A DNA stretch of 64,000 bases from a virus (IMGVR_UViG_3300017705_000783:1-64000), one strand, 5' to 3'. Shown: positions 929 through 11,588, numbered from the stretch's first letter. Notes: generated by a model not told the origin, from the letters alone. Numbers and translations: made by a program.

Positions 929-1606
929 TTACTTAACTATGAGAGAGTTATACAGTTCCCACTGATCAATACAAGAATCATGGATTTCAGGTGTCTTTGC
1001 TACGTTAAAAGTTCTACCCATAAAGGGGAGATCCTGATCAGGAAAATTAGATATATCATGCACATGCTGCCACTCACACCCCTTAGCTACAACACTACTC
1101 CATCCACAGGCCCAAGCTTTCAATCCCAACCCATGCTCATCTGCTAAGGGACCGTTTAAGAAGTTGTACCCTCCTATATCATTAATCATTTCTAATCTAT
1201 AAGCCAATAAAAATCCTTTAAGAGTGGGTCTTTTATGCTCTGGTCGGCCTCCTATCTCTACCCCAACTATCCCTACGTCCTCCTCTTTAAATTCTTTAAT
1301 CATCTTTTCATAAGTAGACGGACCCACTCGGCAATCGTCACTCAATGCTACCACAAAAGGAGACTCACATAAGTTAAATCCCGTATTAAATGCTCGGGCA
1401 CACCCTATATTTTGGGACATAATAGCATAGCGAGTAATTCTCTTGTCGGAAGAGCAATATTCTATAATTTTTTGAGTATCCTCACCATAAGGGTTAACCA
1501 CTACGCAGAACTCAGAAGGTAAATGAGTAGAGGCATATGCCTCCTCTACGCACTGTTGTAAATTAGATAAACTTTTCCATCCAGTAGTAAAAATAGAGTA
1601 TTCCAT
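929..1606 (-). CDS. Glycosyltransferase family 2 (GT-A)
   Basis: GT2-like N-terminus, NIGCARAFNTG and VVALSDDC (DxD-like) motifs. Confidence 0.75.
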   Translation of the reverse strand: MEYSIFTTGWKSLSNLQQCVEEAYASTHLPSEFCVVVNPYGEDTQKIIEYCSSDKRITRYAIMSQNIGCARAFNTGFNLCESPFVVALSDDCRVGPSTYEKMIKEFKEEDVGIVGVEIGGRPEHKRPTLKGFLLAYRLEMINDIGGYNFLNGPLADEHGLGLKAWACGWSSVVAKGCEWQHVHDISNFPDQDLPFMGRTFNVAKTPEIHDSCIDQWELYNSLIVK

Positions 1607-2506
1607 TTAATTTTCCTCAGTATAAACTTCGATTTGTTCCTTTAGGTATCTGTCAAAAGAGATGTATTTATGTGCAATTTCAAAATTATTTTTAATAGCT
1701 TCTCTCCTACTATCATAGTCTTCGACGCTCAAATTATCCAACACTTCTTCAAGGTCATCTAAATTAGAAAATTCTAAACATCCATCTATATCGAAGAACT
1801 CTCCCACGTTCGTAGGGCTCCATACTATGGGAACTGTTCCCGTGAAAAAACAATTTAATAGTTTCTCATCAAAATAATTTTTACACCTAATGCTATGAAT
1901 TACCATAGCATATCTATAATCTTTGAAAGCTCTAAAAAGATTTCCAGTAACTTTCAAATAAGCTCCTTTCAATGTCTCCGTAGATTCATTCTTATAGTCC
2001 TCATATAAATTTTTATAAAAAGGGCCATAACAATCCATCTTATTCCCATATTGCTTTATAACTTCATGCCTTAGTCTATGCCCTTCGGCCCACACCTTCT
2101 CACTCGCTACAATAGAAAGTGATTTACTTTTATTATATATTTTTATGTCTTCTTTTAAAATATATGCTCCTGCTAGGAATGGAAACAATCTAAATTTAGA
2201 AGAGATACTTAGAAGACGTTCATCATGAGTGAATATAGCGTCAAACTTATTTACTAAGTTTGGATTCTCCGCTAAAGCCATATAAGCATCAGGTTTAATG
2301 GATTTAGGTTCTATAAATAGCCCAAATTTATATTTAGAGGAGACCTGATCAACAACAGGATGAAGTATTAGCTCGTCTGTAAAGACTGTTGGCCCGTCAA
2401 ACTCTAAAAGAGGAGGACGGATGTATTCTACATCATTGCAAGGTTGCCATCCGTTAAACCATAGATTACAGGAAGGATTATTAGTATCAAATAAATTAAT
2501 TTTCAT
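1607..2506 (-). CDS. Putative glycosyltransferase, GT10/fucosyltransferase-like (GT-B)
   Basis: C-terminal NYFDEKLLNCFFTGTVPIVW resembles the GT10 Y(I/V)TEK...G.VPIV motif. Confidence 0.55.
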   Translation of the reverse strand: MKINLFDTNNPSCNLWFNGWQPCNDVEYIRPPLLEFDGPTVFTDELILHPVVDQVSSKYKFGLFIEPKSIKPDAYMALAENPNLVNKFDAIFTHDERLLSISSKFRLFPFLAGAYILKEDIKIYNKSKSLSIVASEKVWAEGHRLRHEVIKQYGNKMDCYGPFYKNLYEDYKNESTETLKGAYLKVTGNLFRAFKDYRYAMVIHSIRCKNYFDEKLLNCFFTGTVPIVWSPTNVGEFFDIDGCLEFSNLDDLEEVLDNLSVEDYDSRREAIKNNFEIAHKYISFDRYLKEQIEVYTEEN

Positions 2507-3287
2507 AGAGGTAACTATAATCCTTAGAAACTGCGTTAACTTTTCCTTCTTCGGTAAATTCCCCTTCTATACCATACAAACAAGGTCCCGCATAATGAAT
2601 AAAATTAGCTTCATATCTGTGGTTATCTGAATCATATTCGCCCAAACTTATCCTATTAAAGGAATGATCTAAAGATTCATTGGGAATATTATATTTTTGA
2701 ATCAAAGCATTAAAATAAGTTTGATCATTAAAATCATATATATTTTCACAATCTTTTAATGATAATAATTTTTCCTCATCCGTTATCCACGAACTACTAT
2801 CCTTCCCGAATAGCATCACACCCATATTGTAATAAACATGTTTCTCTCTTTCATTCTTTTTCCAAGGGAAAGGCTCGTCTAAATTTTCAATAACTCTTTT
2901 AACGTAAGGGTCTCTATCCATAACGTCTTCATCTCCTCCGTATAAAGTTTTTCCCGTTATCCCTACCTCTTGGCTTTCATCGTAGCCATAATATTTCTCA
3001 GGATCAGGATACTCTTCAAATATATTTTTTGCATGAGGGGTAATTAAAACATCTGCGTCTAAGTAAAGAACCTGGTCAAAATCCTGGTCAAATAGCTGAC
3101 GAATCTGTAGCTTCTCAAAGAAAAAGTTAGCGGTGGGATTGGGTCCGTAAGGCCACCCAGTAATCATCTGCTGGGATATGAAGTGCTGGATGTCGTACTT
3201 TTCACAATAAGAGTGTTGTGATTGTAAACATTTTTGCCAGTGGGGTCTAACTCCTCCAATACATAAATTAAAAATAGCTTTTTTCAT
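2496..3287 (-). CDS. Glycosyltransferase, GT8/GT34-like (GT-A)
   Basis: VLYLDADV (DxD), YYNMGVMLF, NDQTYFN and FIHYAG motifs. Confidence 0.75.
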   Translation of the reverse strand: MKKAIFNLCIGGVRPHWQKCLQSQHSYCEKYDIQHFISQQMITGWPYGPNPTANFFFEKLQIRQLFDQDFDQVLYLDADVLITPHAKNIFEEYPDPEKYYGYDESQEVGITGKTLYGGDEDVMDRDPYVKRVIENLDEPFPWKKNEREKHVYYNMGVMLFGKDSSSWITDEEKLLSLKDCENIYDFNDQTYFNALIQKYNIPNESLDHSFNRISLGEYDSDNHRYEANFIHYAGPCLYGIEGEFTEEGKVNAVSKDYSYLYEN

Positions 3288-3298
3288 AAGAAAGTTCC

Positions 3299-3610
3299 TT
3301 ATAACTCAACACATTTATCTTCAAAGAATACATCATAGTAAGGTTTCCCCATGCGTAACTCATGATACTTAGCTCCCCACTTCTTCAATTGATCACGAGT
3401 TACGTCATAGCATAATTCATAAGCTTTATGTATATTACCTTTGGCTCTGGTCATGCCTCTTGCTGTCCAGTAAATAATAGTGTGCCCTTCTTCATATAAT
3501 TCATTAATTTTATTTATCTTACTTAAAAAAGGATAACACTCTTCGTACTTACCCTTTGTGTCACTACAAATAGTACCATCAATATCCACAAAGTAAATCA
3601 TTTTATCCAT
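3299..3610 (-). CDS. Small HAD-superfamily phosphatase (capsule-biosynthesis phosphatase-like)
   Basis: YFVDIDGTI (DxDGT), YWTARG, GKP and EDK motifs. Confidence 0.8.
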   Translation of the reverse strand: MDKMIYFVDIDGTICSDTKGKYEECYPFLSKINKINELYEEGHTIIYWTARGMTRAKGNIHKAYELCYDVTRDQLKKWGAKYHELRMGKPYYDVFFEDKCVEL

Positions 3611-4263
3611 TCTCTAAAATCGTTTAGAAACTCTTCCACAGACGTATCGGTAGACGGGTGAATCATCATTTTCCTTATCACAGAAAATCCAGCGGTTACA
3701 ATATGGGAACCAGCATCCCACGCATCGGATACGTCCTTTGCGCTTCTAATGCTCCCAGAAATAATCTCACAGTTAAGTTCGTTGGTTTCTATAAATTGAC
3801 GTACCTTCTTAATAACCTCAATAGGATCTCCTCCGCAATCTAAAAGACGATTATAGAATAAGGATACATACCTAGCTCCAGACAAAGCAGCCATCTCCAT
3901 CTGAGTTGCCGTGAAGCAACAAGTACAATTGACAGCTACCCCAGAGGAACTGAGCTTATTTATAATTTTTAACTCCTCGTACCCTACAGGAATTTTTATA
4001 TTTACGTTTGTATAGTCGCTTTCCTTATAGATAGAAAAAGCCTGTTCATACATTTCAGAGGGGGTTTCGGCAAACACTTCTACACTTAAAGGGACCCTTT
4101 TGATCTCCTTACACAAAGAAACAATCTTCTTTATGTGCTTGATAAAATTCTCCTTCGGTTCCTTCGATAAAAGAGAGGGATTAGTGGTTACTCCTTCAAC
4201 AGCACCTGTGCTTAACGAATTTTCTATATCATTTAAATTAGCGGTATCTATAAATAACTTCAT
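3598..4263 (-). CDS. tal: Transaldolase (short TalC/MipB subfamily)
   Basis: LFIDTA, GVTTNPSLL, SVEV, Schiff-base VNIKIP, VNCT, YVSLF. Glu in SVEV and Phe in SLF are the transaldolase pair; fructose-6-P aldolase has Gln/Tyr. Confidence 0.9.
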   Translation of the reverse strand: MKLFIDTANLNDIENSLSTGAVEGVTTNPSLLSKEPKENFIKHIKKIVSLCKEIKRVPLSVEVFAETPSEMYEQAFSIYKESDYTNVNIKIPVGYEELKIINKLSSSGVAVNCTCCFTATQMEMAALSGARYVSLFYNRLLDCGGDPIEVIKKVRQFIETNELNCEIISGSIRSAKDVSDAWDAGSHIVTAGFSVIRKMMIHPSTDTSVEEFLNDFREWIK

Positions 4264-4676
4264 TTTTCTATATGCCTATACTTTCTTCCATCTTCAACCA
4301 GATGTGAATCCGAATCATCATCCTTTGTAGAAACTTCAATAATTATTACATCTTCTTCTGCAATTCTCATGTGCATCAACCCCACTGGGATATGAAAGAT
4401 GTCTCCCTCGTTTAAAATAACAGACTTATTTTCTGCTCTCCCAACCCGTAGCCCTACCTTAAGCCTACCCTTTTCAATGTAATAAGATTCTTCCTTCTTA
4501 ACATGATACTCTAAGCTGCTTTGTGTATTTGCCCTCATAAAAATACGTTTTACCGTATAATTATCGCCCTCAAAAATAGTGTGCATCTCCCCCCAGTATT
4601 TTTTTATACTTTTCAGTGGTTTGCATACAGGAGGTAAAATTTGAATACCGTAAGATATTTCAGTATTATTGTCCAT
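4260..4676 (-). CDS. Cupin-fold sugar(-phosphate) isomerase (mannose-6-P isomerase type II C-terminal / lyxose isomerase-like)
   Basis: KYWG, SLEYHVKKEESYY and GDIFHIPVGLMH cupin metal motifs. Start placed at ATG 4676 behind GGAGG; the ORF track starts at 4715. Confidence 0.75.
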   Translation of the reverse strand: MDNNTEISYGIQILPPVCKPLKSIKKYWGEMHTIFEGDNYTVKRIFMRANTQSSLEYHVKKEESYYIEKGRLKVGLRVGRAENKSVILNEGDIFHIPVGLMHMRIAEEDVIIIEVSTKDDDSDSHLVEDGRKYRHIEK

Positions 4677-4677
4677 G

Positions 4678-5601
4678 CTACTTCGTTCCTCCGTGATTTT
4701 TAGATAGAAACTCATTTAAATCTCCCATATTAGGGGTTCTGGTTCCTATGTTAGTAGTTGATAGTGCAGCCCATGCGTTACAAAAAGCCAATGCTTCTAT
4801 TATTGACAGGTGGGATACAATACATAAAGAAAAGGCAGCAAGAAAGGCATCCCCTGCTCCGCAAGGGTCAACGCACTTAGCCTTGTACCCTGCATGGGAT
4901 ATCTCTGTATTAAAATCAGAGAATGAACACCCCTCCGCTCCCAAAGTGGTACACCCCACAAAAGATTTTCCGTATCCCTCAGATTCCTCCTTATTCATGC
5001 ACATATAATCAGAATTTTCAAATAACAAATATCTATTTTTTCTATCCGACATCTGTGAGCTAGATATGACGGGGATACCATAAGTATGAGCAGTCTCAAT
5101 AATATAATCAACTTCCCCAAACATACCTAATCCATAATCAACAAGAACTACAGAATCTATATTTTTCATGTGATGCTCTATCGTTGGAATACGGTGAGAA
5201 TAAGGTGTAGAACTAGTTTTATTTATTTGAAGATATTTATACCGTTCTTCTCCTTTAGTGGACCAAATTCTAGTTTTAACATTATTATCTGTATCCACCA
5301 AAAGGGGAGAAAACCAAAACTTATCGCTACTTTTTTTCCACTCTGTAAAATACCTTTTGTAACTATCATTTCCTAGAGGAGTAAGAAACCTACAAGAAGC
5401 TCCCAAGGCTAGTATATTCTCGACCACATTAGCGGCTCCCCCCAAACTTACGGATCTCTCAACTTCTTTCAGCTTTAGAGTTGGGGATTCCAAAGAGACC
5501 CCCACAGCTTCGCCAATAATAGTCTCATCAATGATACTATCCCCGATAACTAAAATATTTTTATTCTTAAAATTCATTATCGGGATGCTCATAGAGCCCA
5601 T
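4678..5601 (-). CDS. PfkB-family sugar kinase, HldE/RfaE domain I (heptose-7-phosphate kinase-like)
   Basis: ILVIGDSIID, SLGGAANV and DPCGAGDAF motifs. The true start may be 5592 or 5577. Confidence 0.85.
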   Translation of the reverse strand: MGSMSIPIMNFKNKNILVIGDSIIDETIIGEAVGVSLESPTLKLKEVERSVSLGGAANVVENILALGASCRFLTPLGNDSYKRYFTEWKKSSDKFWFSPLLVDTDNNVKTRIWSTKGEERYKYLQINKTSSTPYSHRIPTIEHHMKNIDSVVLVDYGLGMFGEVDYIIETAHTYGIPVISSSQMSDRKNRYLLFENSDYMCMNKEESEGYGKSFVGCTTLGAEGCSFSDFNTEISHAGYKAKCVDPCGAGDAFLAAFSLCIVSHLSIIEALAFCNAWAALSTTNIGTRTPNMGDLNEFLSKNHGGTK

Positions 5602-6457
5602 TCTCCAAAGTATCCAACCGTTGTATTTTACGAATTGTGTCAGTGGTAGAATAGTTCTGTACTAGAGGAAAAATATTAACTTGAACATCCTCAGGAATAT
5701 TGTCACGATGGCGAACTTCGTCGGCACTCCATTCTCCTCCCTTCACAACAATATTGGGAGAAATTTTATTACGAACCTCTTTTAAATTACCATCAAAAAT
5801 AATAACCTCATCAACTTCAATTAATGATTCTAAAAGTTTCTTTCTATTATCTTCGTTATTAATAGGTCTAGTTTTTCCTTTTAACTTTCGTACTGATTTA
5901 TCACTGTTAATGGCTACTACTAACCTACCCCCTAACCTTTTAGAAAATTGCAGTAGCTCTAGATGCCCAGTATGGAGAATATCAAAAACTCCGTTAGTAA
6001 ATATTATTTTTTGGGGGGAGTTATCTAATTTTGACAACCGTTTATTATGCCTTCCCTCCCCAAAGGACTCATTCAACCATATATCAACGATTTCCTGATT
6101 TGTATCATAAGAATTAGACCAGCTACCTAAACAGAGAATATTAGAATCATTATGCTCTCTACATTTGGCCGCAGTATCTATATTGTGAACTAACGCCGCC
6201 CTAACACCCTCATACCGATTAGCAGCAATACTCATGCCAACACCTGTACCACATAAAAGTATTCCTCTAAAAGAAGAATTACTGTTTATGATCTGACTAA
6301 GCTGTTTAGCATAGTCCGCGTAATCCACGCTTTTCAGAGTGTCATGCGGACCCAGATCAATTACGGTGAACCCCTTTGATTTTAGGCTATCGGATATTGA
6401 TAGTTTTTGTGACACTCCGTTATGGTCTGCGCCTAAAATTATAATATTATTTTTCAT
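5567..6457 (-). CDS. Fusion of RpiB-family sugar-phosphate isomerase (N-terminal) and HldE/RfaE domain II nucleotidyltransferase (C-terminal)
   Basis: N-terminal GADHNG, VDYADY, CGTGVGMSIAANR, REHNDSNILCLG, GRHNKR; C-terminal FTNGVFDILHTGH, VAINSDKSVRKLKG..RPI, KGGEW, YSTT. Confidence 0.9.
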   Translation of the reverse strand: MKNNIIILGADHNGVSQKLSISDSLKSKGFTVIDLGPHDTLKSVDYADYAKQLSQIINSNSSFRGILLCGTGVGMSIAANRYEGVRAALVHNIDTAAKCREHNDSNILCLGSWSNSYDTNQEIVDIWLNESFGEGRHNKRLSKLDNSPQKIIFTNGVFDILHTGHLELLQFSKRLGGRLVVAINSDKSVRKLKGKTRPINNEDNRKKLLESLIEVDEVIIFDGNLKEVRNKISPNIVVKGGEWSADEVRHRDNIPEDVQVNIFPLVQNYSTTDTIRKIQRLDTLENGLYEHPDNEF

Positions 6458-7442
6458 GAAAAAAGTCCCTGTAAGTATATTGAGCTAGTTTAACTGGGTC
6501 AACAGTTTCGCACGAGGTGTCACAAGTAGCGGATAAATCTTCCCATCCTCTAAGCTTCTTCATCTGCTCCCCACAACGTAGGGTGCATTTGGAATGAAGG
6601 TCCCAATATAGAGTAGTATTTTTACTAGCGTAGTGATATAATTTGTTTATAGTTTGAGCAGCCAATAAGACTATATCCTTATCCTGAGAATTAAATATAT
6701 GGTGCATCCCCCCATCAGCCAACACCGTAACTCTCGGCTTTGCAGCTTCGTAGGCAAGATCTTTCCACGGCATATGACCCACATGGACATCCCCAAAGTT
6801 TAAGAAATCTTTTGAGAACTCCATAATCTTAATATCAGGATCAAGTCGTTTAATCTCATCTACGAACTCTCTCCACGACCCTCCCTGATCTCCATTAAAT
6901 CTGAATCCTTTTCCATCGCAGCCTGGATGGGCCGTAGGATTGGTCGGAGTGATTTTCTGTGCGGGTACAATGGCTAAAGTCTTCTCCTCTACTGGAGGCT
7001 TCTCTATAAATATTTTTGGAAAAAGATCAGTACCATCGTGTAGATATTTCTCTAACCCTAACTGGAGCACGGAATTCAAATATAGTAAATTTGCAGTAGG
7101 ATGTTTGTAAAGATAATCAAAGTTATCATTCCAGTAGTCCCAGCAGCGCGGGTGACGCTCCGCAAAAAGAACAAACATATTTTCTGGTAGATTCTTCCTG
7201 CCGTTATTGGCCTCTTGCTTCCAAAAATCATAAGTACCAATTAAATTTTCATTGGGATTGGCTATCTCATCCACTAAGGGGTTATCCCTCATAATATCAA
7301 CTAACTCACCTACAGTAATAACTACCAGTTTTGAGTCGGGGTACTCTTTCTTTAGGAGAGTGGGAGCAAAAGACCAATGTACAGAATCTCCCAAATTTTG
7401 AGGATAGAACCATCTAGGAATTACTAAATAAATTGTTTCCAT
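6447..7442 (-). CDS. Glycosyltransferase family 9 (heptosyltransferase-like)
   Basis: NLGDSVH...PTLLKKEYPDSKL at the N-terminus and LADGGMHH (cf. GT9 DSGxMH) near the C-terminus. Confidence 0.65.
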   Translation of the reverse strand: METIYLVIPRWFYPQNLGDSVHWSFAPTLLKKEYPDSKLVVITVGELVDIMRDNPLVDEIANPNENLIGTYDFWKQEANNGRKNLPENMFVLFAERHPRCWDYWNDNFDYLYKHPTANLLYLNSVLQLGLEKYLHDGTDLFPKIFIEKPPVEEKTLAIVPAQKITPTNPTAHPGCDGKGFRFNGDQGGSWREFVDEIKRLDPDIKIMEFSKDFLNFGDVHVGHMPWKDLAYEAAKPRVTVLADGGMHHIFNSQDKDIVLLAAQTINKLYHYASKNTTLYWDLHSKCTLRCGEQMKKLRGWEDLSATCDTSCETVDPVKLAQYTYRDFFHEK

Positions 7443-7444
7443 TT

Positions 7445-8923
7445 TTATTTACTTCTCCTTAAAATACTTCTCGGGAGATCCCCTTGACCCATGCTATGCT
7501 CAAACTTTACAAACCCACCAGCAGGATTAAAAGGAATGTTTAGTGTGTCTCTAACCTCGGCTTCCAACTTCTCTCTTTCTATTACTAAATCATTAGCAGA
7601 AATATGATCAGTCCAAACATAAGATTTATACCCACCATCTGGATCTCCCTTATAATAGTCGGGTTCCTCTAAATAATTCAAATCCTTTTGGTACAATTTA
7701 TCCCCCGTGCGGGGTTGAGTGTATACATAATAATCTTTCTCTTTAATAGCTTCATCAAAGTAAGGGGAACCTGGGTAAGTAGTTATGATGGTGCAATCAA
7801 AATCTTCTGGTTCGTTTTCAAGTAACCAATTCTTCGTATTCTCTATAGTTTCCTTACTCTCTCCCGCATGGCCGATGGACATGAGAGCTTTCACTTTTAA
7901 TCCAGCATTCTTAGCGTACTGTACACACTTAGTGTTGGCAGCTACATCAGCATTCTTCTCTATGTTGGTCAGGATACTCTCGTCACCAGACTCAAATCCA
8001 GTTAAAAGCCATCGGAATCCTGCTGCATACATTAGGTCCGCTTGTCTCTGGGTGAATAATTCAGCCTTTACAAATCCTCTAAACATGAACTGTTCATTAA
8101 CTTCTTTTTGTAAGGCAATCAACCTCTCTAAAAGAGATTCCCACTCTTTATTTACATTCAACTCATCATCATAAAACATAAAACCAGTAAATCCATAAGT
8201 ATCATATAGATGACGAACTTCATCCACCACAGAATCAGATGATCGAGTACGAATTTTTCTTAAGAAAGGAGAATTTCTACCACCACAAAAGGTACACTTA
8301 AAAGGACATCCTAATTGACAAATTAAACTCGTAGCTTTAGCTCCCTCGATACTGTAATGATAAGAGTCCATATCCACTAAATGCCGTGCAGGAAGAGGAA
8401 GATCCTCTAACTCATCATTAGTAAGAAATAACCCGCCCTTGGGAACATCAGCATCCACTATACCCCTATCAGTGTCAAGAGCTTCAAAAATAGCTTTCTC
8501 CCCATCCCCAGCAACCAGAACATCGAAAGTATCTAACAACGCTCCAATATCCCGTGTGGCTCTTCCAGAAAACTTTTCTTTCTTTGCAGCAGAGTTCATA
8601 AGGGAGGGATGGGGACCTCCTAAGATAATTTTAGACTCTGGGGCAAGTTCTCGTATATTATTAGCTATCTTAAAAGCAAAAGGTATTTGAGGGGTGGTTG
8701 CTGTTAGACCAAAAGTTTTAATAAATGGATTTTGATTTAAATAAGTATCCAATACTTCTTCACAATTCTTTACCCCAGCTAAATCTAGAAAATCAACAAA
8801 ATATCCCCTCTCCTCTAAAGCCGCTGCTACTTTTAGAATACCTATATGAAGAAAAACTCGTTCATCCAGTAAAAAGGGAGAAGGTGGAGTAATAAAACAA
8901 ATAGTTTTATTTACTGATAACAT
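7445..8923 (-). CDS. Cobalamin-binding radical SAM enzyme (class B methyltransferase-like)
   Basis: N-terminal B12-binding domain (GLTATTPQ, IILGGPHPS, VAGDGE), CPFKCTFC CxxxCxxC motif, FYDDEL, GFESG. Confidence 0.9.
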   Translation of the reverse strand: MLSVNKTICFITPPSPFLLDERVFLHIGILKVAAALEERGYFVDFLDLAGVKNCEEVLDTYLNQNPFIKTFGLTATTPQIPFAFKIANNIRELAPESKIILGGPHPSLMNSAAKKEKFSGRATRDIGALLDTFDVLVAGDGEKAIFEALDTDRGIVDADVPKGGLFLTNDELEDLPLPARHLVDMDSYHYSIEGAKATSLICQLGCPFKCTFCGGRNSPFLRKIRTRSSDSVVDEVRHLYDTYGFTGFMFYDDELNVNKEWESLLERLIALQKEVNEQFMFRGFVKAELFTQRQADLMYAAGFRWLLTGFESGDESILTNIEKNADVAANTKCVQYAKNAGLKVKALMSIGHAGESKETIENTKNWLLENEPEDFDCTIITTYPGSPYFDEAIKEKDYYVYTQPRTGDKLYQKDLNYLEEPDYYKGDPDGGYKSYVWTDHISANDLVIEREKLEAEVRDTLNIPFNPAGGFVKFEHSMGQGDLPRSILRRSK

Positions 8924-9614
8924 CCAAAGCAGTCCTCACTTGTTCACTTAAATTTTGTTTGTGTTCGTTGTTCATATGGGATAAATTATAAACTAAAAGA
9001 ATATCTTCAATAAACTCTACTTTAGAATACCCAATTTTTTCTAATATAGGAACAAAAATAACTACATCTGCTGCTGCTGTATAAAAATTACCTTCCTTAT
9101 CCCTAAAATTATGATCTTCTATCAAATCCCATAAATGTCTTTTAAAGGTTCTTAGGTGAGAGAAGGGCCATCCATCTATAACCGCTTGGCGTGGGCTACC
9201 TGTGTACTCTCTGGCTATACATTCACCTCCTGTGGTAGAGCTATAACTTCCGTAGGTTAACCAACATTCTGTATCTTCGTAAACCTTATCTACTTTGGAT
9301 AACGCATGTTCATTTATAAACCAATCATCTCCATCTAACTGAACAATTATATCTTCGCTGTCTGCCTCCGAATTTTCTACTCCCTTTTTATGATTTAAGG
9401 GAACCCCTATTCTTTTATCATTTTTAATTATCTTAAATCGTTCGTCACCGCAAATAGCCTTCTCAGCCTTTTCAACTGTGGCATCCATAGAATTATCATC
9501 TACTATAACCTGAGTAAAGTTAGTATGCGTTTGATCTTTAACTGATTGAATGCACTTACCTATCCACTTCTCAGCGTTATAGACAGGAGTTATAATTCTA
9601 AAAGTGTTTTCCAT
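8907..9614 (-). CDS. Glycosyltransferase family 2
   Basis: IITPVYNAEKWIGKCIQSV, VVDDNSMD, VQLDGDDW. Confidence 0.88.
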   Translation of the reverse strand: MENTFRIITPVYNAEKWIGKCIQSVKDQTHTNFTQVIVDDNSMDATVEKAEKAICGDERFKIIKNDKRIGVPLNHKKGVENSEADSEDIIVQLDGDDWFINEHALSKVDKVYEDTECWLTYGSYSSTTGGECIAREYTGSPRQAVIDGWPFSHLRTFKRHLWDLIEDHNFRDKEGNFYTAAADVVIFVPILEKIGYSKVEFIEDILLVYNLSHMNNEHKQNLSEQVRTALDVISK

Positions 9615-10387
9615 GATTCTAATATCCTATCTTCTTCCCAATACTCTGAATGTTTAGAAGATCCAAACAGGTCGTTAAAGGGAATTCCATGCTGTTCGCA
9701 CTCATGCCTAACTAACCCATAAGTCTCAGCCCTACTTGCATGATAAACAGCATCAATCATGTTATACATAACTGTTTTATCGTCATACTTCCCTACTATC
9801 TTAACCCTCGTATTATTCTTTATTAAAGATCTAACCTGTTCTTGGTAATAATCTTCATCGGTTACGCTCCCAAAAATAAGGATTCGGGTGCCTTTCGGCT
9901 CAGAATCCAAGGCAGCTTGAATTGCCAAGGCCGTCTGCTTGTGGCTGTCAATGCTTCCTATTATACCCACAGCCCCTCGTTTATGTGAACCTTTTCTCTC
10001 ACATTTATCGACAATATTAGGAATAACAACAGAGGGAGTATCAACATCCTGCCAATCTCTTTGCCACTCGGAGACAAAGTGTATAGTGTCCACAGATTGA
10101 AGGGGTTTCTCTTTAAGAGGAAATAATATTGTTTCGTGGCAAGAGAAGATCACCTTCTTTATTGGAATTTTTTCTTCTTTTAGGGGAACAAAGTGAGCTA
10201 TGAGAGTATTTTCTTCATCTGTTATATCTAATCTAGAGGTGTTCGCAGATCTGCACTTATCCAAATGCCAGTTATGTGGGCCATAGAATATAGCATCAAT
10301 GCCCGCCTTATTTAGCAAATTAGTTAGATTAATGAACGCAACGGTTGAGCCACCAGGGTTGGACCAACCAGATAATATCCTAACCAT
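9590..10387 (-). CDS. Glycosyltransferase family 4-like (GT-B)
   Basis: SNPGGS, GIIGSIDSHK, HASRAETYGLVRHE (ExF/YG motif). Start placed at ATG 10387, overlapping the upstream stop. Confidence 0.75.
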   Translation of the reverse strand: MVRILSGWSNPGGSTVAFINLTNLLNKAGIDAIFYGPHNWHLDKCRSANTSRLDITDEENTLIAHFVPLKEEKIPIKKVIFSCHETILFPLKEKPLQSVDTIHFVSEWQRDWQDVDTPSVVIPNIVDKCERKGSHKRGAVGIIGSIDSHKQTALAIQAALDSEPKGTRILIFGSVTDEDYYQEQVRSLIKNNTRVKIVGKYDDKTVMYNMIDAVYHASRAETYGLVRHECEQHGIPFNDLFGSSKHSEYWEEDRILESWKTLLEL

Positions 10388-11588
10388 TCCCACTGAACGA
10401 CCACTCCTTGTTATAGGTTGCTTCCTTGTGCCTCTCACTCAGGAGCTTAAAGCACTGCTCATACAGCTCCAGTCTGTGCTTTGCCACCTTATTGATGTCG
10501 AAGTATTCGTCCGTTATTTGACGTAGATTACGGCCCATCGTCTCAACGTGCTTGGGGTTTTTTATACATTTCGAGAGGATCTTAACCCACTGGCTTCTTG
10601 GGGCATCGGGATCTATTAAATACCCTGTCTCCCCGTTAACTATAGTTTCATCATAACATCCTACATTGGAGGCTATCAAGGGTACTTTATATCTCCCACA
10701 CTCAGCTACCTTAATCTCACTCTTACTATCATTAAACGCATTCATCTGAAGTGGTGCTATTGCTAACTCCATGTTGGCATACATACTGCCATATCTATCT
10801 GGGGGAAGAGCTTGTCCTATAGACCAATTATTTGCTTTCTTAAACCCCCCAAGGAGTATCCTTTTATAGTTATCCCACACCTCGTTCTGCCATTCTTTGG
10901 CTTTGCCCTTCTCTTGAGGTGCAGGTGCGCCATAAAAATCCCACTGTACCTTTTCTTTTCCTACCTTTTGATTCACCGACCACGGTACCCCAGCAAACTC
11001 TTTAACGTCTTCCTCATGATGAATCCCACCTGCCCATCCTACCCTACTTACTCCCTTTATCTTTACTCGTTGCATGTTCCAACAAGGAAGAGTATAATCA
11101 ATAGAATTTTTTATAACTGCGAGAACTCCTCCTACAAAAGACTTAACTCTCTCAGCAAATTTCTTCTGCGTCACAGTAACGAGGTCAGCATTGAAATACA
11201 TCCATTTAGTTATTTCATATAAATTCTTTTCTTCATAGGTTTGTTTTAATCTATGTCCTTCGTACAACTCGGTAAGGAGATCATCGGTATCAAAATGAAC
11301 AAACTTACCTCTCTGCTTTGAGATTCCTATAACTCTCGCTGTGTAGGGGCCACCAAAGTTAGAAATATTATTTATAAGAACTATATCGGCCCAATCTATA
11401 TCAGGATAAGGTGCATCATCTGTTGGCATCTCTCCTGTTTCCATATTTAGTTGTAGGGGATTTTGAACAAGCTTAACTTCAACTTTGTCTGGGTATAGTT
11501 GGGCTAGTTTTTGTAATGGCATGATAAGACGATAGTAAGCACATCCTCCTTCGTTTGCATAAACACCAAGGATTTTAAGTTTGTTCAT
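10380..11588 (-). CDS. Glycosyltransferase, GT4-like (GT-B), phage type
   Basis: GCAYYRL, DTDDLL, GWAGG..H, IAPL..NAFN..KSEIK.AE, IASNVGCY. Confidence 0.8.
   Translation of the reverse strand: MNKLKILGVYANEGGCAYYRLIMPLQKLAQLYPDKVEVKLVQNPLQLNMETGEMPTDDAPYPDIDWADIVLINNISNFGGPYTARVIGISKQRGKFVHFDTDDLLTELYEGHRLKQTYEEKNLYEITKWMYFNADLVTVTQKKFAERVKSFVGGVLAVIKNSIDYTLPCWNMQRVKIKGVSRVGWAGGIHHEEDVKEFAGVPWSVNQKVGKEKVQWDFYGAPAPQEKGKAKEWQNEVWDNYKRILLGGFKKANNWSIGQALPPDRYGSMYANMELAIAPLQMNAFNDSKSEIKVAECGRYKVPLIASNVGCYDETIVNGETGYLIDPDAPRSQWVKILSKCIKNPKHVETMGRNLRQITDEYFDINKVAKHRLELYEQCFKLLSERHKEATYNKEWSFSGNG

Follow-up and report, generated by a model that had tools for sequence, protein, structure and literature searches.

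A phage gene cassette without GmhA, predicted to make an ADP-activated seven- or eight-carbon sugar

We analyzed a window of 64,000 nucleotides (bases 1 to 64000) from the 72.5-kb IMG/VR viral contig IMGVR_UViG_3300017705_000783, which carries, at positions 3299 to 7442, a compact cassette of sugar-related genes. Its conserved core consists of five genes, encoding a fusion of ribose-5-phosphate isomerase B with a nucleotidyltransferase (RpiB::nucleotidyltransferase), a PfkB-family kinase resembling HldE domain I (kinase1), a small cupin (cupin1), a TalC-type transaldolase, and a capless mini-HAD phosphatase; a GT9-like glycosyltransferase is encoded next to the core. We consider it quite likely that this route makes an ADP-activated sugar of seven or eight carbons (C7 or C8) without GmhA, the isomerase of the ADP-heptose pathway. 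The ketose-to-aldose phosphate isomerization is probably carried out here by cupin1 in place of GmhA, and not by RpiB. As to the sugar itself, our tentative choice is an ADP-octose formed via octulose-8-phosphate. Literature searches turned up neither an account of the cassette nor one of a cupin that isomerizes sedoheptulose-7-phosphate.

Enzymes of the cassette

All genes of the window lie on the minus strand. A preliminary description of this sequence listed six overlapping or near-abutting genes, and these open reading frames (ORFs) are real: all six are intact, and adjacent ones overlap by 4 to 38 nucleotides (Table 1). In the fusion protein, the RpiB domain matches PF02502 (E value of 3.7e-45) and scores above the cut-offs of both TIGR01120 (139.4 bits; cut-off, 138.65) and NF004051 (164.6 bits; cut-off, 135), with RpiB of C. 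thermocellum (3he8; E value of 2.7e-34) as its best PDB match. Residues D11, H12, C69, T71, H102, N103, R136, H137, and R140, which make up the invariant Asp-His, Cys-Gly-Thr, His-Asn, and Arg-His-x-x-Arg motifs of RpiB, are kept in 30 of 30 fusion proteins. Such canonical residues define a site for pentose phosphates or, at most, hexose phosphates. Because all of them are retained and the equivalog cut-off is passed, we read the domain as a true ribose-5-phosphate isomerase, which more likely makes ribose-5-phosphate. The same residues and score led us to reject RpiB as an isomerase of C7 or C8 ketoses. Thus, of the earlier proposal that RpiB and/or the cupin replaces GmhA, the RpiB part is not supported, and the cupin part emerges as the better one.

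The nucleotidyltransferase domain of the fusion is closest to TIGR02199 (rfaE_dom_II; E value of 1.6e-40), although its 138.3 bits fall under the cut-off of 181.5, and it has been assigned to phrog_7878. Its best PDB match is a cytidylyltransferase-like chain of 5x9q (E value of 2.8e-21; ~50% identity over 104 residues), which we take to be Burkholderia HldC. At E values of up to 0.001, 1651 proteins match the fusion; among the matches listed, all 120 fusion homologues contain both the RpiB and the nucleotidyltransferase domains, and most come from marine metagenomes. Three longer fusions (P0003, P0004, and P0010; 441 to 469 amino acids) combine two nucleotidyltransferase domains with a single RpiB domain in two different domain orders. 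Kinase1, whose gene adjoins that of the fusion in 54 of 57 viral loci, matches PF00294 (E value of 2.8e-21), and its best family is TIGR02198 (rfaE_dom_I; E value of 2.3e-33), with 115.7 bits against a cut-off of 345. It shows a weak match to HldA (4e84), limited to the N-terminal part.

Cupin1 matches the MannoseP_isomer domain PF01050 (29.8 bits; cut-off, 23.6) and also Cupin_1, and the closest atlas clusters are the C-terminal cupins of phosphomannose isomerase (PMI). It carries the motif KYWG...S-x-E-Y-H-x-x-K-x-E...H, in which H71, E76, and H115 are invariant. This motif parallels that of type II PMI, whose metal site has the pattern Gln/His-x-His...Glu...His; in cupin1, the pattern is E-x-H...E...H, and a Lys takes the place of the second His. 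The AlphaFold (AF2) model of cupin1 has a predicted local distance difference test score (pLDDT) of 89.2. We favor the cupin as the probable replacement of GmhA because of the PMI match, the metal site, the co-variation of cupins with kinases that is described below, and the lack in the contig of a dehydratase to supply a 4-keto NDP-sugar.

The transaldolase matches PF00923 (TAL_FSA; E value of 3e-42) and phrog_440 (E value of 1.5e-54), with 165 bits to TIGR00875, under the cut-off of 246. In the PDB, it is far closer to the transaldolases of B. subtilis, T. maritima, and T. acidophilum (E values of ~1e-35) than to the E. coli fructose-6-phosphate aldolase (FSA; 1e-18). Alignment with 3r8r, 1vpx, and the T. 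acidophilum enzyme shows that the Asp, the Schiff-base Lys, the catalytic Glu, and the S-x-F-x-x-R motif are all kept. The Glu/Phe signature noted in the preliminary description is therefore genuine: the protein has the Glu and Phe typical of TalC and not the Gln and Tyr of FSA. The mini-HAD protein belongs with TIGR01689 (EcbF-BcbF; E value of 1e-9) and the BT0820 HAD family, and its motifs I to IV (DxD, T, K, and (E/D)D) are conserved across 29 homologues. We propose that it acts as a distal-phosphate phosphatase, an analogue of GmhB. Its label in PHROG, "phosphoheptose isomerase," is erroneous.

A search for the SIS/GmhA domain (PF13580) gave no match in the 72.5-kb contig, whose completeness CheckV puts at 56%. 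The result was equally negative for 22 related viral genomes, six of them with a completeness of 90% or more, and for the full genomes of 3 cyanophages. The contig also shows no match to the GmhB-type HAD-IIIA family (TIGR01656) and encodes no SDR epimerase or dehydratase. As far as these data reach, the pathway is independent of GmhA, as had been surmised. Among cellular carriers of the cassette, four bacterial genomes have SIS matches of 44 to 118 bits and one archaeal genome has none; all of these matches fall under the strict cut-off.

Database labels suggest otherwise for the cyanophages S-T4, S-SM2, and S-CAM1, where RefSeq annotates the mini-HAD as "phosphoheptose isomerase" and the cupin as "cysteine dioxygenase," the same labels being carried in PHROGs by phrog_1238 and phrog_7851, respectively (Table 1). 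The former label was considered as evidence for a phage GmhA and rejected, given the HAD motifs and the lack of an SIS domain; the "cysteine dioxygenase" phrog_7851 is probably the true isomerase.

The sixth gene encodes a 331-amino-acid protein that gave no match in sequence searches of Pfam (even at an E value of 10), NCBIfam, PHROG, or PDB. Nothing in the whole contig matches the Pfam GT9 domain (PF01075), so this protein fails the Pfam model. However, its AF2 model (pLDDT of 89.9) has only GT9 members as top Foldseek matches, and VIA-align gives Z scores of 15 to 17 to 3tov, TibC, WaaF, and WaaC, compared with ~10 for other GT-B folds. The family profile finds 3tov (E value of 0.0016) by way of the motifs LGD and DGGxHH. 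Throughout the family, G18-D19 and D243-G244-G245 do not vary, so that the model combines a GT-B fold with the N-terminal GD, which includes the catalytic Asp, and the C-lobe donor motif D-(S/T/G)-G-x-x-H that characterize GT9. Judging from the model, the protein is GT9-like by fold and a very divergent relative at best. Its family comprises 48 proteins limited to the closer kin of this phage, and the gene occurs in none of the 57 conserved viral loci. Thus, the GT9-like fold assigned in the preliminary description holds up and membership in the conserved core does not, though other GT9-like genes flank many relatives: of the 22 related viral genomes, at least 8 have a GT9-family gene as an immediate neighbor of the cassette. 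An hhalign comparison of the 331-amino-acid family with c26, a conserved upstream gene family of these relatives, revealed no relation.

The C-lobe of the GT9-like family also has two conserved CxxxC pairs (C286, C290, C307, and C311). The protein heptosyltransferase TibC, which is among the best structural matches, contains a four-cysteine iron finger formed by Cys339, Cys342, Cys358, and Cys370 (PMC4358343), and the positions of the cysteines in the two families are reminiscent of each other.

Conservation of the cassette and its two types

A search of 50,697 phage records with blastn found no match to the region, and a scan of viral contigs with the single sequence found no relatives; it was the profile scan of IMG/VR that revealed them, yielding 57 loci. 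The order fusion, kinase, cupin, transaldolase, HAD is kept in ~50 of these 57 loci, which makes a random arrangement untenable, and the cassette is found not only in viruses but also in DPANN archaea and in bacteria. These five genes constitute the conserved core. In 48 of the 57 loci, there is an additional gene between the kinase and the cupin genes (see Table 1 for examples), which encodes an AraD-type L-ribulose-5-phosphate 4-epimerase (NF006047; 283.8 bits; cut-off, 257). It is absent from the window and from the whole contig, from one further viral locus (L049), and from the Acidobacteria and Verrucomicrobia versions, so that the window holds the minimal five-gene form. The AraD-like enzyme of the relatives is best regarded as an optional tailoring enzyme, whose substrate could be a pentulose-5-phosphate, as suggested by the family score, or which could use the same retro-aldol chemistry to epimerize the transaldolase product at C4. 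Since this phage lacks the enzyme, its sugar is predicted to be a different stereoisomer.

Comparison with cultured cyanophages reveals two related systems. Set A, the type found in the window, comprises RpiB::nucleotidyltransferase, kinase1, the optional AraD, cupin1 with its E-x-H motif, the transaldolase, and the HAD. Set B comprises a nucleotidyltransferase, a second kinase (kinase2), the HAD, and a second cupin (cupin2) with an H-x-H motif; it is present in S-T4, S-SM2, and S-CAM1 and in ~30 other records, with neither an RpiB domain nor an adjacent transaldolase. The cyanophage cupin and kinase are orthologous to the second such pair of some uncultured phages (61 to 71% and 36 to 40% identity, respectively), as opposed to 35 to 42% and 25 to 28% identity with the pair in the window. 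In S-CAM1, Set B is adjoined by an SDR whose sole strong family matches are to HldD, the ADP-heptose 6-epimerase (TIGR02197; 188.5 bits). Because of this HldD-like neighbor, Set B looks like a complete heptose route, which would be fed by sedoheptulose-7-phosphate of the host.

The linkage of the two sets was counted in scans seeded with the cupin profile alone and thus unbiased with respect to RpiB. Among viral cupin1 loci, RpiB::nucleotidyltransferase, kinase1, and the transaldolase were all present in 42 of 43, the single exception being truncated by the contig end. The same was true of 14 of 14 GTDB cupin1 loci with enough flanking sequence, which include Acidobacteria and Verrucomicrobia contigs of 150 to 785 kb. 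RpiB or transaldolase accompanied cupin2 in 0 of 36 viral and 0 of 44 GTDB loci. These counts bear out the earlier view that the transaldolase serves a glycan pathway and is not a stray pentose-phosphate gene. The strict tie of RpiB and transaldolase to Set A suggests that Set A starts from a ketose that the host does not supply.

Two phage contigs (L008 and L014) contain Set A followed by kinase2, cupin2, and another GT9-like gene, each contig having only one HAD and one nucleotidyltransferase (Table 1). The presence of Set A together with kinase2 and cupin2 in one phage implies two different products, and the gene content suggests that the two sugars share the last two steps. A separate kinase for each cupin, combined with final two steps that can be shared, is what would be expected if the cupin makes the aldose-phosphate substrate of the kinase.

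These data also bear on the view that the cassette is a chance assembly. In that case, the transaldolase and RpiB would serve nucleotide supply as ordinary auxiliary genes of the pentose-phosphate type, GmhA of the host would be needed by the kinase, HAD, and nucleotidyltransferase, and the cupin would be an NDP-sugar epimerase or ketoisomerase and not a sugar-phosphate isomerase. This view would accord with the status of talC (phrog_440) as a well-known cyanophage auxiliary gene, with the CapF epimerase domain among the fold matches of the cupin, and with the deltaproteobacterial cupin2 homologues that adjoin a GDP-mannose 4,6-dehydratase. Nevertheless, we find it very unlikely: each of the 120 homologues among the matches listed has RpiB and the nucleotidyltransferase in a single protein, gene order and linkage hold in phages, DPANN archaea, and bacteria, the cupin and kinase types co-vary as pairs, and the contig has no SDR or dehydratase that could make the 4-keto substrate. 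The Glu/His metal site of the cupin would likewise be typical of metal-dependent isomerases and not of the RmlC or FdtA types.

Several versions of these genes in other organisms deserve mention. In Acidobacteria, the cupin is a bicupin of ~279 amino acids. After the cassette come another nucleotidyltransferase, encoded on its own, and an unmistakable GT9 (80.6 bits), with an aminotransferase and a UDP-glucose dehydrogenase nearby. In deltaproteobacteria, homologues of cupin2 (51 to 62% identity) are found beside GDP-mannose 4,6-dehydratase and other SDRs; they stand alone, with no kinase, nucleotidyltransferase, or HAD, which fits either an isomerase of the PMI type that acts by itself or participation in the synthesis of a 6-deoxy sugar. 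Set B of S-CAM1 lies directly beside a tail fiber gene and a large virion structural gene, a location compatible with virion glycosylation. The glycan island of one related phage (L004) encodes a protein with 325 bits to UDP-sulfoquinovose synthase, under the equivalog cut-off, which is unusual for a phage.

The predicted pathway and its possible products

We infer the substrates, nucleotide, carbon number, and acceptor of the pathway as follows. The RpiB domain would convert ribulose-5-phosphate to ribose-5-phosphate, and the transaldolase would transfer a dihydroxyacetone unit from fructose-6-phosphate (or sedoheptulose-7-phosphate) onto it to give D-glycero-D-altro-octulose-8-phosphate. The PMI-like metal cupin would isomerize this octulose-8-phosphate to octose-8-phosphate, the HldE-like PfkB kinase would phosphorylate C1 to yield the 1,8-bisphosphate, and the mini-HAD would strip the distal phosphate, leaving octose-1-phosphate. 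The HldC-like nucleotidyltransferase domain would then form ADP-octose, from which the GT9-like transferase may attach the sugar to a glycan built by other transferases encoded nearby. This scheme is preferred because it is the simplest one that gives all six activities a direct role; in particular, since RpiB is canonical, its direct product, ribose-5-phosphate, would be the C5 acceptor for the octulose. It is also in keeping with the fact that Set A always adds RpiB and the transaldolase, even in free-living bacteria with a full pentose-phosphate pathway.

There is a precedent for this logic in the lincosamide GDP-octose route, which uses the transaldolase LmbR, the isomerase LmbN, the kinase LmbP, the phosphatase LmbK, and the nucleotidyltransferase LmbO (PMC4351081 Table 2; PMC12945683). 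As in Set A, a transaldolase, an isomerase, a C1 kinase, a phosphatase, and a nucleotidyltransferase are clustered, a match of logic only. The lincosamide pathway differs in belonging to Streptomyces secondary metabolism, in using a GmhA-like isomerase and a GDP sugar, and in having no RpiB and no GT9. To our knowledge, it is the sole known pathway that places a dedicated transaldolase before an isomerase, kinase, phosphatase, and nucleotidyltransferase. Its transaldolase reportedly takes ribose-5-phosphate as the acceptor, a result that is said to come from work by Sasaki et al. in 2012.

The principal competing product is a heptose. In this case, the transaldolase would make sedoheptulose-7-phosphate from fructose-6-phosphate and erythrose-4-phosphate, the cupin would isomerize it to a glycero-manno-type (or other) heptose-7-phosphate, and the resulting ADP-heptose would go to the GT9-like enzyme; RpiB would merely push pentose-phosphate carbon to sedoheptulose-7-phosphate via the host transketolase. 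Sedoheptulose-7-phosphate is the natural transaldolase product, PMI-type chemistry on it would yield the manno configuration, and heptoses are common sugars in glycans. The kinase is closest to HldE and the nucleotidyltransferase to the presumed HldC chain of 5x9q, and both the GT9 fold and the GT9 neighbors point to ADP-heptose donors. On the other hand, such a route leaves RpiB without a direct role, despite its fusion to the last enzyme and its strict linkage to the cassette, even in free-living bacteria that possess a pentose-phosphate pathway themselves. Moreover, Set B with its HldD-like epimerase already resembles a heptose route and co-occurs with Set A in some phages, and no heptose operon built on GmhA is known to us to include a transaldolase or RpiB of its own. 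All in all, we regard a heptose product as only slightly less probable than an octose.

The canonical RpiB invites the thought of a pentose. RpiB and the cupin together could take ribose-5-phosphate through ribulose-5-phosphate to arabinose-5-phosphate, with stereochemistry of the PMI type, or ribose-5-phosphate could be used directly, and the kinase, HAD, and nucleotidyltransferase would turn the product into an ADP-pentofuranose; the transaldolase, and AraD in the relatives, would only feed the pentose-phosphate pool. This scheme accounts for the two isomerases, and the extra gene of most relatives is a bona fide AraD-type pentulose-5-phosphate 4-epimerase. The phage is T4-like, and, by analogy with the arabinosylating T4-like phages, the sugar could be placed on DNA or on a glycan. 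However, neither a dCMP hydroxymethylase nor a ThyA-like gene is found in the 72.5-kb contig, itself incomplete, and the DNA-modification reading lacks support, there being no hydroxymethylase-like gene in the contig. The role of the transaldolase would be indirect, although it is strictly conserved, even in bacteria, and the N-terminal substrate region of the kinase, the heptose-type nucleotidyltransferase, and the GT9 neighbors also argue against a pentose, which we therefore hold to be quite unlikely.

A hexose appears highly improbable. According to this scheme, the cupin makes mannose-6-phosphate from fructose-6-phosphate, and the HldE-like steps give ADP-beta-mannose. The cupin does pass the Pfam cut-off for the PMI C-terminal domain, cupin2 adjoins GDP-mannose dehydratase in bacteria, and ADP-mannose is a surrogate donor for heptosyltransferase I. 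The strict linkage of the transaldolase and RpiB would, however, be left unexplained: fructose-6-phosphate is abundant, so that a hexose route needs no dedicated copy of either.

Several points weigh against the ADP-octose scheme. The kinase and nucleotidyltransferase are heptose-type, and every characterized GT9 donor known to us is an ADP-heptose. In glycans, heptoses are common, but octoses, ulosonic acids aside, are very rare. Ribose-5-phosphate is abundant in any cell, which leaves no obvious need for a dedicated RpiB in octose synthesis, and the lincomycin cluster has none. The isomerase role of cupin1 is based on the PF01050 match, the metal motif, and the gene context, and its fold matches (dioxygenases, the CapF epimerase domain, and lyxose isomerase) are non-discriminating. 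The completeness of the contig is only 56%, and GmhA could come from the host. Finally, the cyanophages with Set B have talC elsewhere in the genome, which partly confounds the absence of a transaldolase from Set B. A bolder form of the ADP-octose scheme seems unlikely. It would make Set A the first known route to an eight-carbon aldose that serves ordinary glycans and not an antibiotic, with a wide distribution in ocean phages, DPANN archaea, and soil bacteria, and would have the TibC-like four-cysteine GT9 of this phage modify proteins, such as those of the virion, and not the lipid A core.

Genomic setting and relation to known systems

The contig encodes a tail sheath protein, a major head protein, gp32, ribonucleotide reductase, and a DnaB-like helicase, by which we recognize it as a T4-like myovirus. 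The cassette is part of a glycan island, 11.6 kb long, with six further glycosyltransferases (GTs), namely, two GT2, two GT4-like, a GT8, and a GT10-like one, and a DegT-type aminotransferase (Table 1). With respect to transcription, a B12-binding radical SAM gene, a GT2, and the two GT4-like genes lie upstream, and the GT8, GT10-like, GT2, and DegT genes lie downstream; there are probably more sugar genes, such as one for a dehydratase, past the contig end. The radical SAM gene is located 2 nucleotides upstream of the GT9-like gene, and its family matches (PhpK, BchE, HpnJ, and the AprD4 diol-dehydratase) are weak. In one related locus (L006), a homologue with 64% identity is found ~2 kb downstream of the cassette. 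The enzyme might tailor the sugar by methylation or deoxygenation. Proteins identical to those of the window are also present on a 108-kb contig.

Table 1. Positions of the cassette genes, the flanking glycan genes, and the homologous regions discussed in the text
Feature	Coordinates	Strand	Basis or contents
DegT-type sugar aminotransferase, truncated by contig end	3-923	-	Pfam
GT2	929-1606	-	Pfam
GT10-like	1607-2506	-	Pfam
GT8	2496-3287	-	Pfam
Capless mini-HAD phosphatase, 103 aa	3299-3610	-	TIGR01689, BT0820 HAD family
TalC-type transaldolase, 221 aa	3598-4263	-	PF00923
Small metal-site cupin, type II PMI-like (cupin1), 151 aa	4260-4715	-	PF01050, Cupin_1
PfkB-family sugar-phosphate kinase, HldE-domain-I-like (kinase1), 307 aa	4678-5601	-	PF00294, TIGR02198
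RpiB::nucleotidyltransferase fusion, 296 aa	5567-6457	-	RpiB, residues 6-146; nucleotidyltransferase, residues 144-280
HldC/HldE-domain-II-like nucleotidyltransferase domain of fusion	5567-6013	-	TIGR02199
RpiB domain (ribose-5-phosphate isomerase B) of fusion	6014-6457	-	PF02502, TIGR01120
Divergent GT9-like (heptosyltransferase-fold) glycosyltransferase, 331 aa	6447-7442	-	Fold and profile
B12-binding radical SAM enzyme	7445-8923	-	PF04055 and PF02310
GT2	8907-9614	-	Pfam
GT4-like	9590-10438	-	Pfam
GT4-like	10380-11588	-	Pfam
AraD-like gene between kinase and cupin genes	L004 11791-12477; L023 11606-12298		NF006047
Kinase2, cupin2, and GT9-like gene after Set A	L008 13761-15783; L014 14019-16034		
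Mislabeled cyanophage HAD/cupin genes	L058 9915-10596; L059 10716-11027 and 12357-13023; L126 4682-5342		
Set B region of S-CAM1	L126 6174-10336		Beside tail fiber and virion structural genes
Acidobacterial versions	L069 7581-8420 and 9584-11304; L075 3660-4499 and 5557-7164		Bicupin; second nucleotidyltransferase and GT9
Deltaproteobacterial cupin2 homologues	L091 6733-9384; L110 7986-9536		Beside GDP-mannose 4,6-dehydratase and other SDRs
Protein similar to UDP-sulfoquinovose synthase	L004 18350-19549		325 bits

The preliminary description likened the cassette to the ADP-heptose pathway (GmhA-HldE-GmhB), and this likeness is upheld by the kinase, phosphatase, and nucleotidyltransferase beside a GT9-like transferase. 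Both would begin with the isomerization of a ketose phosphate; C1 would then be phosphorylated and the distal phosphate lost, with adenylylation and transfer to follow. The kinase is nearest to HldE domain I, the nucleotidyltransferase is ~50% identical to 5x9q, and the GT9-fold transferase has the LGD and D-G-G-x-H motifs. However, a PMI-like cupin is found in place of the SIS-type GmhA, the phosphatase is a 103-amino-acid capless HAD of another subfamily and not a HAD-IIIA GmhB, there is no HldD, and a dedicated transaldolase is added, as is an RpiB that forms one protein with the nucleotidyltransferase. In its predicted mode of operation, the cassette thus resembles the ADP-heptose pathway without belonging to it: unrelated families take the places of GmhA and GmhB, and the HldE-like parts do not reach the equivalog cut-offs.

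Two cyanophage systems are also related. The "T4-like GC 304-307" block of S-SM2, S-T4, S-CAM1, and others shares a homologous HAD (45 to 47% identity), nucleotidyltransferase (41 to 43%), cupin (35 to 38%), and kinase (25%) and likewise lacks GmhA, but its cupin and kinase are paralogous to those of the window, it has no RpiB or adjacent transaldolase, and in S-CAM1 it is adjoined by the HldD-like SDR. Cyanophage talC, known as a pentose-phosphate auxiliary gene, belongs to the same protein family (phrog_440) as the transaldolase of the window, which differs in lying within a nucleotide-sugar operon and in being strictly linked to it, in cellular genomes as well. New in this work are the division into Sets A and B, for which linkage was counted without bias, the finding of an HldD-like partner for Set B, the identification of the optional gene as AraD and its absence from the window, the GT9-like fold of the 331-amino-acid protein, and the recognition of the database mislabels of the phage HAD and cupin.

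If the proposed pathway is correct, it would represent an unnoticed branch of nucleotide-sugar metabolism in which a cupin, not homologous to GmhA, takes over the first step in making higher sugars and which has its own precursor supply. This branch would be present in many abundant uncultured marine phages, in archaea, and in soil bacteria, and octose-containing glycans might exist in nature. A propagated error would be corrected as well, with the "phosphoheptose isomerase" of phrog_1238 becoming a HAD phosphatase. The split into Sets A and B offers a clean experimental contrast, with Set B available in cultured cyanophages. ADP-heptose is an innate-immune agonist, and analogues of it made by such pathways would be of wider interest. 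Phage genes for transaldolase and RpiB, now counted as pentose-phosphate auxiliary genes, would have to be read differently.

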